The notes beneath the pieces are model-generated. The model had not been told where the DNA came from. It did no database searches and was given only the letters and a program-made list of their open reading frames with translations. DNA of 64,000 nucleotides from Shigella phage ESh28, in the sequence record ON528738; one strand, 5' to 3'. Both the position numbers and the translations under genes were made by a program. This document shows positions 24,091 through 44,558 of the stretch, piece by piece (the stretch's first letter is position 1; the number at the start of each line of letters is the position of its first letter).

Positions 24091-24262
24091 AATTAATGCA
24101 GGATTTACTGAATCTTTGAATGGTCATCTTTGTGTGAAAATTTCTGAAAAAGAATACCATGATAGTTCAATTAAAGAAGTTAATCCTCCTATTGTAAGAG
24201 CAGACCCTAATATGAAAGTGTGGGTTGATTCCTATCAAGTCAAAAAATGGTGGCAACTGTGA
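24059..24262 (+). CDS. hypothetical protein, 67 aa
   Basis: Track ORF 24056..24262 (TTG) trimmed to adjacent ATG; gagga RBS. Confidence 0.4.
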   Translation: MLTHVKFKRLKINAGFTESLNGHLCVKISEKEYHDSSIKEVNPPIVRADPNMKVWVDSYQVKKWWQL

Positions 24263-24505: not shown

Positions 24506-25708
24506 ATGAAAGTATGTATTTTTATGGCTCGAGGTCTTGAAGGTTGTGGTGTAACAAAATTCTCACTCGAGCAACGTGATTGGTTTATTAAAAATGGTCA
24601 TGAAGTGACTTTGGTTTATGCTAAAGATAAATCATTTACTCGTAATTGCGCGCATGATTATAAATCATTTTCAATTCCGGTTTTATTGGCAAAAGAATAT
24701 GATAAAACACTTAAGCTGGTAAATGATTGTGATATTCTAATTATCAATTCAGTTCCTGCTACTTCGGTTGAAGAAGACACTATTAATAACTATAAAAAAA
24801 TTATTGATAACATTAAACCTTCTGTTCGTGTTGTAGTTTATCAGCATGACCATTCTTCTCTTTCTTTGCGTCGAAATTTGGGATTAGAAGAAACTGTTCG
24901 TCGAGCTGATGTTATTTTTAGCCATTCTGATAATGGCGATTTTAATAAAGTTCTGATGAAAGAATGGTATCCAGAAACTGTTTCTCTGTTTGATGATATT
25001 GAAGAAGCACCGACAGTATATAACTTTCAGCCTCCTATGGATATTGCGAAGGTTCGGTCAACCTACTGGAAAGATGTTTCTGAAATTAACATGAATATCA
25101 ACCGTTGGATTGGTCGTACGACTACATGGAAAGGTTTTTATCAGATGTTTGATTTTCACGAAAAACATCTTAAACCTGCAGGACTAAGTACTATTATGGA
25201 AGGTCTGGAACGTTCTCCAGCGTTCATTCCCATTAAAGAAAAAGGAATTCCATACGAGTATTATCGTCTTCATCAAGTAGACCAAATTAAAATTGCTCCT
25301 AATTTGCCAACGCAAATTCTTGACCGTTATGTAAATAGCGAAATGCTTGAACGCATGAGTAAATCCGGATTTGGTTATCAGCTGAGTAAGTTGGACAAAA
25401 AATATCTACAACGTTCTTTAGAATATACTCATCTCGAGCTTGGTGCATGTGGAACAATTCCGGTATTTTGGAAATCTACTGGCGAAAATTTAAAATTCCG
25501 TGTTGATAATACTCCTTTGACCTCGCATGATAGCGGTATCATTTGGTTTGATGAAAATGACATGGAATCAACATTTGAACGTATTAAAGAACTGTCATCT
25601 GACCGAACTCTTTATGACCGCGAACGCGAAAAAGCTTATGAATTTTTGTATCAGCATCAAGATTCAAGCTTCTGCTTTAAAGAACAGTTTGACATTATTA
25701 CAAAATAA
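24506..25708 (+). CDS. agt: DNA alpha-glucosyltransferase
   Basis: 400 aa, MKVCIFMARGLEGCGVTKFSLEQRDWFIKNGHEV; matches T4 alpha-gt as recalled. Confidence 0.9.
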   Translation: MKVCIFMARGLEGCGVTKFSLEQRDWFIKNGHEVTLVYAKDKSFTRNCAHDYKSFSIPVLLAKEYDKTLKLVNDCDILIINSVPATSVEEDTINNYKKIIDNIKPSVRVVVYQHDHSSLSLRRNLGLEETVRRADVIFSHSDNGDFNKVLMKEWYPETVSLFDDIEEAPTVYNFQPPMDIAKVRSTYWKDVSEINMNINRWIGRTTTWKGFYQMFDFHEKHLKPAGLSTIMEGLERSPAFIPIKEKGIPYEYYRLHQVDQIKIAPNLPTQILDRYVNSEMLERMSKSGFGYQLSKLDKKYLQRSLEYTHLELGACGTIPVFWKSTGENLKFRVDNTPLTSHDSGIIWFDENDMESTFERIKELSSDRTLYDREREKAYEFLYQHQDSSFCFKEQFDIITK

Positions 25709-35708: not shown

Positions 35709-35960
35709 ATGGAAACTTTAGTAGCAGGTTCAATTTTTATGGTTTTAGTTTCAGGTGTGTTGGCTATTATTATATACATGCTTCCATGGTTCATTGCCTT
35801 GATGCGTGGGTCAAAATCGACAGTAGGAATCTTTTTCACATCTTTACTGTTTAACTGGTCAATTATTGGTTGGTTTATTACATTTATTTGGTCAATTGCG
35901 GGTGAAACTAAAAAGTCTGCACAACCAAATCAGGTAATTATCATCAGAGAGAAGGAATGA
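35709..35960 (+). CDS. imm: superinfection immunity membrane protein Imm
   Basis: 83 aa, two hydrophobic helices; length and position between 43 and 42 match T4 imm. Confidence 0.7.
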   Translation: METLVAGSIFMVLVSGVLAIIIYMLPWFIALMRGSKSTVGIFFTSLLFNWSIIGWFITFIWSIAGETKKSAQPNQVIIIREKE

Positions 35961-36106
35961 AAAGCAAAATTATAACAGTGTTGCTTTTAATCTTGATGAT
36001 TATAATAAGTATATACTATAGTGTAACGGTTCCTCCTATGATTCCAACTATTATTTTAGGTTGGGGTTTATTACTGTTACAAGTTAAATATGAATGTATC
36101 AATTGA
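35957..36106 (+). CDS. small membrane peptide, 49 aa
   Basis: ATGA overlap with imm stop; strongly hydrophobic. Confidence 0.35.
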   Translation: MKSKIITVLLLILMIIISIYYSVTVPPMIPTIILGWGLLLLQVKYECIN

Positions 36107-36113
36107 GGTTTAA

Positions 36114-36854
36114 ATGATTAGTGACTCTATGACAGTTGAAGAAATCCGTCTTCATTTGGGGCTTGCATTAAAAGAAAAAGATTTCGTAGTTGATAAAACT
36201 GGTGTTAAAACTATTGAAATTATTGGCGCATCATTTGTAGCAGATGAACCGTTTATTTTTGGCGCTCTTAATGATGAATACATTCAGCGTGAACTTGAAT
36301 GGTACAAGTCTCAAAGTCTGTTTGTTAAAGATATTCCAGGTGAAACACCAAAGATTTGGCAGCAGGTAGCATCTTCTAAAGGCGAAATTAACTCGAATTA
36401 TGGTTGGGCTATTTGGTCAGAAGATAACTATGCCCAGTATGATATGTGTTTAGCTGAACTTGGTCAAAATCCTGATTCTCGACGTGGCATCATGATTTAT
36501 ACTCGTCCATCTATGCAGTTTGACTACAATAAAGATGGTATGTCAGATTTCATGTGTACGAATACAGTACAGTACCTGATTCGTGATAAGAAAGTCAATG
36601 CAGTAGTAAGCATGCGCTCAAATGACGTGGTCTTCGGATTCCGCAATGATTATGCATGGCAAAAATACGTACTAGATAAATTAGTATCTGATTTGAATGC
36701 AGGCGATTCAACTCGTCAGTATAAAGCAGGTTCTATTATATGGAATGTCGGAAGTCTTCATGTATATTCTCGTCATTTTTACTTGGTTGATCATTGGTGG
36801 AATACTGGCGAAACTCATATTGTGAAAAAAGATTATAACGGTGAGTGGAAATGA
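36114..36854 (+). CDS. 42: dCMP hydroxymethylase gp42
   Basis: 246 aa; thymidylate-synthase-like fold; matches T4 gp42. Confidence 0.9.
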   Translation: MISDSMTVEEIRLHLGLALKEKDFVVDKTGVKTIEIIGASFVADEPFIFGALNDEYIQRELEWYKSQSLFVKDIPGETPKIWQQVASSKGEINSNYGWAIWSEDNYAQYDMCLAELGQNPDSRRGIMIYTRPSMQFDYNKDGMSDFMCTNTVQYLIRDKKVNAVVSMRSNDVVFGFRNDYAWQKYVLDKLVSDLNAGDSTRQYKAGSIIWNVGSLHVYSRHFYLVDHWWNTGETHIVKKDYNGEWK

Positions 36855-37693
36855 TTCAATTCGTAATTCCAAGCTATCAACGTGTAGGGGCAGTTTCTGC
36901 CCTTGATATGTTTCCGACTGATTATGAACCGCATATTGTAGTGCGTGAACACGAAGAAAAAGCTTATTATGATGCCTATGGGTCTAGAGCTAAAATTATA
37001 ACTATTCCTGATGATGTTAATGGAATTTCCGGTACTCGTAAAGCAATTACTGATATGTATGCAGGTCAACGAATCTGGATGATTGACGATGATACTACTA
37101 TTCGTATGAGTTCAATACGAAAAAGAGATGATCGCCGATGTGTAGATAAAATTAATCAATTAACTCGTGAACAGTTCTATGAATTGATTCAATACGTTGA
37201 GGATGCCATGGATTGTGGGTATTATCATGGCCATGCTCGTCTACCAATTTTTAAAATTACTTCATCTTGGGGTAATTATCGTGAAAATTCATATGGATTC
37301 ACAAATACATGGTATGACCTTGGAAAACTTACGACAGAACAAATTGGGTATGGAAAAATTGATTTATGTGAAGATATGTATGCATTTCTCAATTTAATTA
37401 ATCAAGGTTATCCGCATTTGGCCTTGTTCAAATATCTGGTTGTATCTGGAAAAGCACAGGCTCCTGGCGGGTGCAGTTCAATTCGTAGTAATTCTAAACA
37501 TAATAGAGCGCTTGAGCAAATCAATAGAGAGTTTCCAGAGCAAGCTCGTTGGAAAACTTCTAATATTGAAAAACGAAAATCGTTGGGTGAAGAAGACGAA
37601 CCATTAAAGGTTCTTCGCATGTGTGTTTCGCGCAAAGAAAAATCAGAAGCATTTCATAAGTTTAATGTTATTCATCCAATAGCAGTTGATTAA
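36851..37693 (+). CDS. putative DNA sugar-transferase (GT-A-like, DxD motif) at the beta-gt locus
   Basis: Track ORF 36845..37693 trimmed to ATG; 280 aa; VIPSYQR and IWMIDDD motifs; unlike T4 beta-gt (351 aa) as recalled. Confidence 0.6.
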   Translation: MIQFVIPSYQRVGAVSALDMFPTDYEPHIVVREHEEKAYYDAYGSRAKIITIPDDVNGISGTRKAITDMYAGQRIWMIDDDTTIRMSSIRKRDDRRCVDKINQLTREQFYELIQYVEDAMDCGYYHGHARLPIFKITSSWGNYRENSYGFTNTWYDLGKLTTEQIGYGKIDLCEDMYAFLNLINQGYPHLALFKYLVVSGKAQAPGGCSSIRSNSKHNRALEQINREFPEQARWKTSNIEKRKSLGEEDEPLKVLRMCVSRKEKSEAFHKFNVIHPIAVD

Positions 37694-37770
37694 TGCCTAA
37701 ATTTATTGTGTTATAATTACTCTATCTTTAACCAGTGAGGAAAATATAATGATGCCTATGGAAAAAATGA

Positions 37771-38952
37771 ATGTCTATTGCAGATTTAAAATCCCGTTTG
37801 ATTAAAGCTTCCACTTCTAAAATGACTGCTGAACTGACTACATCTAAATTCTTTAATGAAAAGGATGTAATTCGTACAAAAATTCCAATGCTTAATATTG
37901 CTATTTCTGGTGCGATTGATGGCGGTATGCAGTCTGGTTTAACTATTTTCGCAGGGCCTTCTAAACACTTTAAATCAAATATGTCTTTGACTATGGTTGC
38001 GGCATATTTAAACAAATATCCTGACGCGGTTTGTCTATTCTATGATAGTGAATTTGGTATTACTCCAGCTTATTTGCGATCCATGGGAGTTGACCCGGAA
38101 CGAGTAATTCATACGCCAATCCAGTCAGTTGAACAGCTGAAAATTGATATGGTGAATCAGCTTGAAGCTATTGAGCGCGGTGAAAAAGTTATTGTATTCA
38201 TCGACTCAATCGGTAATATGGCTTCTAAGAAAGAAACGGAAGATGCCTTGAATGAAAAATCTGTGGCAGATATGACTCGTGCTAAATCACTGAAGTCATT
38301 ATTCCGTATTGTTACTCCTTACTTTAGCATTAAAAATATTCCATGTGTTGCGGTTAACCATACAATTGAAACAATTGAAATGTTTAGTAAAACCGTGATG
38401 ACAGGTGGTACAGGCGTAATGTATTCGGCTGATACCGTATTCATTATCGGTAAGCGTCAGATTAAAGATGGTTCTGATCTTCAGGGGTATCAATTTGTTC
38501 TAAATGTAGAAAAATCTCGTACCGTTAAAGAAAAAAGTAAATTCTTTATTGATGTTAAATTTGATGGTGGTATCGATCCTTATTCTGGATTGTTAGATAT
38601 GGCTCTAGAATTAGGATTTGTGGTAAAACCTAAAAATGGCTGGTATGCTCGTGAATTTCTTGATGAAGAAACTGGCGAGATGATTCGCGAAGAAAAATCT
38701 TGGCGCGCAAAAGATACCAACTGCACTACATTCTGGGGTCCTTTATTTAAGCATCAACCATTCCGAGATGCTATTAAACGTGCTTATCAGTTAGGTGCTA
38801 TTGATAGTAATGAAATTGTTGAAGCTGAAGTTGATGAATTGATTAACTCAAAGGTTGAAAAATTTAAATCTCCGGAAAGTAAAAGTAAATCAGCTGCTGA
38901 TTTAGAAACTGACCTCGAGCAGTTAAGTGATATGGAAGAATTTAATGAATAA
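37771..38952 (+). CDS. uvsX: recombinase UvsX (RecA-like)
   Basis: 393 aa; Walker A GPSKHFKS, C-terminal acidic tail; matches T4 UvsX. Confidence 0.9.
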   Translation: MSIADLKSRLIKASTSKMTAELTTSKFFNEKDVIRTKIPMLNIAISGAIDGGMQSGLTIFAGPSKHFKSNMSLTMVAAYLNKYPDAVCLFYDSEFGITPAYLRSMGVDPERVIHTPIQSVEQLKIDMVNQLEAIERGEKVIVFIDSIGNMASKKETEDALNEKSVADMTRAKSLKSLFRIVTPYFSIKNIPCVAVNHTIETIEMFSKTVMTGGTGVMYSADTVFIIGKRQIKDGSDLQGYQFVLNVEKSRTVKEKSKFFIDVKFDGGIDPYSGLLDMALELGFVVKPKNGWYAREFLDEETGEMIREEKSWRAKDTNCTTFWGPLFKHQPFRDAIKRAYQLGAIDSNEIVEAEVDELINSKVEKFKSPESKSKSAADLETDLEQLSDMEEFNE

Positions 38953-44039: not shown

Positions 44040-44558
44040 ATGCCACATTTCAACGAATGTAGTCAACTGATCGAAGGTGCTGATAAAGCTCAAAATGAAT
44101 ATTGGGATATTCTCGGTGATGAAAAAGACCCGCTGCAGGTAATGCTTGACATGCAGAAATCTCTACAGATTCGTTTAGCTAAAGATAAACCTGAATATAA
44201 CCGTCATCCTGATGATTTGGCTACTGCAGGTGAAGTTGTTGATTGGCTGCGTAATCAGAAAGATTACATTGATGATGAATTCCGTGAACTTCTGACTTCT
44301 CTTGGTGGTATGAGCAATGGTGAAAAAGATGCATCTGCTGTATGGAAGCCTTGGAAGTCGCAGCATGGTGAACGCCGTGAAACTCTAATTACTGATTTGT
44401 CTCCTCAAGACCAGTTGGAAATTAAATTCGAAATGATTGATATTCTTCATTTCGTTCTGAACATGTTCCAAGGTCTTGGTCTTACGGCTGAAGAAATCTT
44501 TAAACTTTATTATCTGAAAAATGCTGAAAACTTCGCTCGTCAAGATCGAGGTTATTAA
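44040..44558 (+). CDS. 56: dCTP pyrophosphatase gp56 (MazG-like)
   Basis: 172 aa; position and length match T4 gp56. Confidence 0.8.
   Translation: MPHFNECSQLIEGADKAQNEYWDILGDEKDPLQVMLDMQKSLQIRLAKDKPEYNRHPDDLATAGEVVDWLRNQKDYIDDEFRELLTSLGGMSNGEKDASAVWKPWKSQHGERRETLITDLSPQDQLEIKFEMIDILHFVLNMFQGLGLTAEEIFKLYYLKNAENFARQDRGY

Follow-up and report, generated by a model that had tools for sequence, protein, structure and literature searches.

The open reading frame at 36851..37693 (+ strand) of the DNA analyzed here, a 64,000-nucleotide window of Shigella phage ESh28, almost certainly encodes a beta-glucosyl-HMC-alpha-glucosyltransferase (ba-gt, also g-gt or TAGT) of the type found in T2 and T6, where the enzyme glucosylates alpha-glucosylated hmC (PMC13216743). 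The 280-residue protein was matched over its full length by PHROG 842, 'beta-glucosyl-HMC-alpha-glucosyltransferase' (E=1.1e-87), and scored 38.0 bits against Pfam PF20691 (TET-associated glycosyltransferase, TAGT), above the gathering score of 27.5 bits and across profile positions 2-205 of 205. It aligned without gaps over 280/280 residues with the T2 protein (97.9% identity, 6 differences), for which two independent records (PV958097.1 and AP018813.1) give an identical sequence, and with the T6 protein (97.1% identity, 8 differences); these two enzymes are UniProt entries Q06717 and Q06718 (PMC6024577). Phages Solly and TB37 share one enzyme sequence, which lies 4 residues away from the ESh28 protein, and the enzyme of phage Geo differs from the ESh28 protein at 7 residues. 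A first-pass annotation had described a 280-residue protein with VIPSYQR and IWMIDDD motifs between gene 42 and uvsX, had classed it as a GT-A nucleotide-sugar transferase, and had suggested a T2/T6-style second sugar (gentiobiosylation) as one possible role. The protein and its motifs are as described, the 97-98% identity to the T2/T6 enzyme bears out the suggested role, and the fold assignment agrees with the structural comparison given below. No point counted against the identification.

The reading frame runs uninterrupted for 280 codons from ATG at 36851 to TAA at 37693, and it is not a chance ORF, since it is conserved in the 688 phage records in which tblastn detected ba-gt. An in-frame GTG lies two codons upstream (36845); the ATG at 36851 is the annotated start in T2, Solly, TB37 and Geo. 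As read from the sequence, the translation initiation region (36840..36854, + strand) contains a GGTGA Shine-Dalgarno sequence at 36840-36844, 6 nt before the ATG, and an ATGA at 36851-36854 in which the stop codon of gene 42 and the ba-gt start overlap. T2, Solly, TB37 and Geo have this overlap in their annotations as well. Through it ba-gt is probably translationally coupled to gene 42, and the gene would be expressed early. A promoter scan of 35900-38000 gave no convincing sigma-70 promoter for ba-gt itself. A terminator scan of the same interval found none after ba-gt, and the sole terminator-like hairpin on the + strand, a stable one, was inside the ORF, within codons 10-21 (36879..36912, + strand). 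Its core is a 9-bp stem, TAGGGGCAG/CTGCCCTTG, at 36885-36905, and the 91-nt context folds at a dG of -25.8 kcal/mol (z=-3.0 versus shuffles). Record LR215724 annotates a 'terminator' under the ba-gt gene, and the hairpin may modulate expression downstream of gene 42.

The flanking genes are gene 42 (36114..36854, + strand), encoding a dCMP hydroxymethylase with 96.7% identity to T4 gp42, and uvsX (37771..38952, + strand), whose product is 90.5% identical to T4 UvsX. The order 42, ba-gt, uvsX is that of T2, T6, Solly, TB37 and Geo, and the 24 kb around ba-gt are about 97% identical to Tequatrovirus genomes such as ESh32, Jbel, AR1, RB51 and Solly. Upstream, between imm and gene 42, a 49-residue hydrophobic ORF is found at 35957-36106; the records of T2, Solly, TB37 and Geo list it as a hypothetical or phage protein, and the equivalent interval of ~150 nt in T4 and T6 has no annotated gene.

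VIPSYQR (residues 5-11; 36863..36883, + strand) overlaps a model strand at residues 2-6, and IWMIDDD (residues 75-81; 37073..37093, + strand) sits at the end of a model strand spanning residues 74-79. In an alignment of 10 family members, P7, S8, Y9 and R11 of the first motif and D79, D80 and D81 of the second are invariant. VIPSYQR is the kind of nucleotide-binding motif that GT2-like GT-A enzymes typically carry on strand 1, and D79-D81 would be the DxD motif that binds metal and UDP-sugar. Across homologs down to 28% identity, 40 alignment columns are invariant, and the ESh28 protein keeps 40/40. A homolog search of 5.8 billion proteins returned 11 clusters only, all of the PF20691 phage type. 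The family alignment accordingly comprised 10 full-length sequences, and the same shallow depth lay behind the structure model.

A sequence search of the PDB found no solved relative below E=1, and the fold was therefore tested on a predicted structure. The AlphaFold2 model had a mean pLDDT of 72 and a pTM of 0.74; its first 80 residues reached pLDDT 83-94. Because the alignment held only 10 sequences, confidence was only moderate overall and, along the chain, past residue 125. Foldseek against the PDB retrieved TarS of S. aureus, the fucosyltransferase WrtF, TarP, the chondroitin polymerase K4CP, RmlT and the ABO transferases (best E 1.8e-4), with TM-scores that were modest at 0.35-0.42. All of the top structural matches were GT-A enzymes or nucleotidyltransferases, and the model forms a single GT-A domain. 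By this model, the ESh28 enzyme has a GT-A fold with a conserved DxD, matching GT2 inverting transferases. GT2 enzymes invert configuration (CAZy), and GT2-like inversion in the modeled enzyme would fit a beta-1,6 bond formed from UDP-alpha-glucose. The AlphaFold2/Foldseek result independently repeats, again from a predicted structure, a published conclusion on T6 TAGT, whose AF3 model was placed in the GT-A fold as a sister of GT2 and for which TarP came closest among cellular representatives (PMC13216743).

In T-even phages, gp42 and gp56 swap C for hmC, alpha-gt glucosylates about 70-75% of the hmC, and in T2 and T6 ba-gt adds a beta-1,6-linked second glucose to give gentiobiosyl-hmC (PMC6024577, PMC13216743, PMC11078745). 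The 64-kb window combines ba-gt with an intact alpha-gt and the hmC synthesis genes 42 and 56, and it holds no beta-gt. The alpha-gt gene (24506..25708, + strand) encodes 400 residues that align ungapped with T4 alpha-gt at 91.2% identity, and its product would make the alpha-glucosyl-hmC acceptor; the RB-series phages that carry ba-gt show the same 91% value against T4 (PMC6024577). Gene 56 (44040..44555, + strand) encodes the dCTPase/dUTPase, which by tblastn matched T4 gp56 along the entire protein at 73.8% identity.

These genes would make up the following pathway. The gp42 enzyme would make hmdCMP and gp56 would exclude dCTP from the pool, and DNA would be built with 5-hydroxymethylcytosine. 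Next, alpha-gt would place an alpha-linked glucose, donated by UDP-glucose, on about three quarters of the hmC, and the ba-gt enzyme would link a second glucose beta-1,6 to the first, giving alpha-gentiobiosyl-hmC. Within the active site the nucleotide would be bound at the N-terminal VIPSYQR strand-loop, residues 79-81 (DDD) would hold a divalent metal and the UDP diphosphate, and the sugar would be inverted on transfer, from alpha in UDP-alpha-Glc to beta in the glycoside formed. Identity, synteny, predicted fold and partner genes are results of the analysis above; from homology and from published T6 deletion mutants we infer both the activity and the linkage, namely UDP-Glc + alpha-glucosyl-hmC DNA -> beta-1,6-glucosyl-alpha-glucosyl-hmC DNA. 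According to published work on T6, the second glucose would hide alpha-glucosyl-hmC from defences that read it. Deletion of ba-gt from T6 left a genome with alpha-glucosyl-hmC only and increased sensitivity to the Brig1 glycosylase (PMC11078745). The DNA of the T6 deletion mutant also became a substrate for the deglucosylase BapA, which is inactive on gentiobiosyl-hmC (bioRxiv 10.64898/2026.02.25.707755).

That the ESh28 modification is alpha-gentiobiosyl-hmC is close to certain, and we infer its proportions from relatives with measured DNA. By LC-MS, Solly and TB37 DNA contains about 1/3 5-hmdC, about 2/3 alpha-gentiobiosyl-hmdC and a trace of alpha-glucosyl-hmdC, and in Geo DNA the ratio of hmdC, alpha-glucosyl-hmdC and alpha-gentiobiosyl-hmdC is 1:2:2 (PMC13390438). 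Beta-glucosyl-hmC was absent from all three; the authors credited the second glucose to the ba-gt gene and the missing beta form to the missing beta-gt (PMC13390438). For ESh28 we predict about 25-35% bare hmC, no beta-glucosyl-hmC, and a remainder of alpha-glucosyl- or gentiobiosyl-hmC, with the gentiobiosyl form most likely the major one, as in T6, Solly and TB37. The Solly/T6 pattern is predicted because R11 and P251 are shared and because dam is absent, as in the Solly group. In a tblastn search across the window, T4 dam, segA, segF and mobB were missing, and the T4 neighbors 56, uvsX and alpha-gt were present. In its lack of dam the window resembles the Solly group, not the Geo group, of the Durham phages.

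Near-identical enzymes accompany very different gentiobiosyl shares: 5% in T2, about 40% in the Geo group and about 67-72% in the Solly group and T6. The cause of these differences may lie outside the ba-gt gene. The low value of T2 also bears on whether the ESh28 gene, though present, might yield an inactive or weak enzyme and DNA that is essentially alpha-monoglucosylated, as in T2. We consider this outcome unlikely. T2 does produce only about 5% gentiobiosyl-hmC despite its near-identical gene (PMC6024577, PMC11078745), and two T6 laboratory records carry lesions in ba-gt, from which it follows that the gene is dispensable in the laboratory. However, the ESh28 ORF is intact and full length, keeps all of the invariant residues, and carries neither the T2 substitutions R11H and P251S nor the T6 lesions. 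Moreover, the Solly and TB37 enzymes, 4 residues off, accompany about two-thirds gentiobiosyl-hmC (PMC13390438), which argues for an active ESh28 enzyme.

The T2 and T6 alleles merit description in their own right. In both T2 records, R11H and P251S are the only differences between the T2 enzyme and that of Solly and TB37. R11H replaces a residue of the nucleotide-binding motif VIPSYQR (codon 11 of the ESh28 gene, 36881-36883) that no family member varies, even at 28% identity. R11H is a candidate, as judged from the alignment, for the cause of the about 5% gentiobiosyl-hmC in T2 versus about 70% in T6 and Solly. One T6 record (MH550421.1) has a TAG (amber) at ba-gt codon 10 and an annotated CDS of 261 residues that starts at Met20; another (AP018814.1) has lost one Asp of the DDD in frame, giving IWMIDDTT and a protein of 279 residues. 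These T6 lesions are either the result of drift in laboratory stocks or sequencing errors, and the shortened form may have spread into reference databases.

Relative to T2, T6, Solly and TB37, the ESh28 enzyme has four residues of its own (A60S, M89I, V101I and A273V), of which I89 and I101 are also present in Geo. All four changes are conservative and none falls at an invariant alignment position. It is very unlikely that they alter how much second glucose is added or which sites are preferred; if they did, ESh28 would have a ratio of hmC, glucosyl-hmC and gentiobiosyl-hmC unlike those of T2, T6, Geo and Solly, and the modified-base ratio would be governed by ba-gt and not by alpha-gt or the level of expression.

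These four substitutions relative to the measured phages are also one of two grounds for asking whether this T2/T6-family allele moves a different sugar or uses another acceptor, either hmC directly or beta-glucosyl-hmC. The other ground is that TAGT homologs in other phages also occur with beta-GT or alone (PMC13216743), and the specificity of the family is therefore not uniform. We regard such a change as highly improbable here. The enzyme is 97-98.6% identical to those of phages with measured gentiobiosyl-hmC (PMC13390438), the substitutions (A/S, M/I, V/I, A/V) are conservative and away from invariant positions, and the partner is alpha-gt, as in T2 and T6. In addition, with a gp42 at 96.7% identity to the T4 hydroxymethylase, the base is hmC. 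The first-pass annotation had correctly recognized the alpha-gt gene as T4-like; its alternative of another sugar found no support, given the presence of alpha-gt and of a T4-like gp42. A Tevenvirinae arabinosyl-transferase system of the RB69 or Bas46-47 type, in which an arabinosyltransferase and a sugar-nucleotide synthesis cluster replace the glucosyltransferases, was considered and rejected on the presence in the window of alpha-gt and ba-gt, as in glucosylating phages, and of a T4-like gp42 (96.7%).

There is a negligible probability that the protein is homologous to T4 beta-gt, has diverged strongly and still places one beta-glucose on hmC: it shares the locus of T4 b-gt and bears the label 'beta glucosyl transferase' in several database records, but this reading is refuted by BLASTP, which found no similarity (best E=9, over 8 residues), and by structural matches that are GT-A, versus the GT-B fold of T4 beta-gt (PMC13216743), and phages with ba-gt have no beta-glucosyl-hmC (PMC13390438). 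The first-pass annotation was thus right to separate the protein from T4 beta-gt. PF09198, the T4 beta-gt family, gave no match to the ESh28 protein at E<=1, and tblastn of T4 beta-gt against the whole 64-kb window gave nothing better than E=1.5.

At the same locus T4 has a 351-residue b-gt followed by segA. When the T4 segA and b-gt DNA was compared with the window by blastn, only the flanking genes and a 25-nt relic were recovered. The relic corresponds to the last codons and stop of ba-gt (37671..37695, + strand; blastn E=1.5e-6), a 96%-identical copy of which lies at about 24238-24262 of T4 (NC_000866), directly upstream of segA. Apart from this relic, homology between the window and T4 ends at 36836, 15 nt short of the gene 42 end, and picks up again at 37783 within uvsX. 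This arrangement suggests a T4 lineage in which a TAGT gene once occupied the locus and was replaced by beta-gt; segA would have inserted in a separate event. The pairing of alpha-GT with beta-GT has been viewed as recent (PMC13216743), with which the T4 relic agrees.

The distribution of the two genes shows ba-gt to be the normal occupant of the 42/uvsX locus in Tequatrovirus and T4 to be the exception. Megablast found ba-gt in 478 phage records, with nucleotide identities of 95-99% in 420, and the larger tblastn set includes about 200 T4-like phages of Klebsiella, Enterobacter and Salmonella at 60-80% and Serratia phages at 48%. Copies of at least 90% identity were present in 472 phage records for ba-gt and in 29 for T4-type beta-gt, the latter being mostly T4 itself and its laboratory derivatives. 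In a published survey, alpha-GT and beta-GT occurred together in only 6 of 753 GT-bearing phage genomes, and the usual pairing was alpha-GT or beta-GT with TAGT (PMC13216743). Likewise, RB3, 5, 6, 7, 9, 10, 14, 27, 32, 33, 51 and 68 have an alpha-gt about 91% identical to that of T4, no beta-gt, and a ba-gt 98-99% identical to that of T2 (PMC6024577).

Annotation labels at the 42/uvsX locus are unreliable in both directions. The T4-type b-gt of RB55 (KM607002.1) and RB59 (KM607003.1) is mislabeled 'beta-glucosyl-HMC-alpha-glucosyl-transferase', and in many records the TAGT gene is labeled 'beta glucosyl transferase', 'glucosyl transferase' or 'hypothetical protein'. The neighboring gp42 is widely labeled 'thymidylate synthase' in public records.

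The identification of ba-gt is correct but already known, in that the enzyme has been named, cloned and genetically tested; its locus, fold class, distribution and knockout phenotype are all published, and no new biology is added here. The use of the result lies in annotation and in the choice of phages for therapy or as enzymology standards. The gene marks a phage with predicted hypermodification of its DNA, in the form of alpha-gentiobiosyl-hmC and no beta-glucosyl-hmC. Gentiobiosyl-hmC predicts partial shielding from Brig1 and from deglucosylation by BapA, and because some bare hmC would be left, sensitivity to Brig3 and to GmrSD/BrxU-type enzymes is also predicted.

Among known systems, the bacterial GT2 GT-A transferases (S. 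aureus TarS and TarP, WrtF, the cellulose synthase BcsA, and K4CP) are only 10-16% identical to the phage enzyme and act on other acceptors (teichoic acid, glycans). They offer no clear counterpart to the last ~90 residues of the phage enzyme, a C-terminal part that presumably binds DNA. T4 b-gt (PF09198) shares with ba-gt the locus 3' of gene 42, the donor UDP-glucose, inverting beta transfer and the phage DNA substrate; it differs in having a GT-B fold, versus the GT-A fold predicted by the model for ba-gt, and in its acceptor, which is hmC itself rather than alpha-glucosyl-hmC. In T4 the next gene after b-gt is segA, for a homing endonuclease; segA is absent from the window. The gene order in Solly, TB37 and Geo, Tequatrovirus isolates of the Durham collection distinct from ESh28, is identical to that of the window. 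The T2 and T6 enzymes are like the ESh28 enzyme in length (280 residues), locus, ATGA overlap, alpha-gt partner, motifs and predicted GT-A fold. The T2-specific R11H and P251S and the Y40N, D55G and R106H of T6 are absent from the ESh28 enzyme, and the residues at which it differs from these two enzymes carry no sign of functional change.
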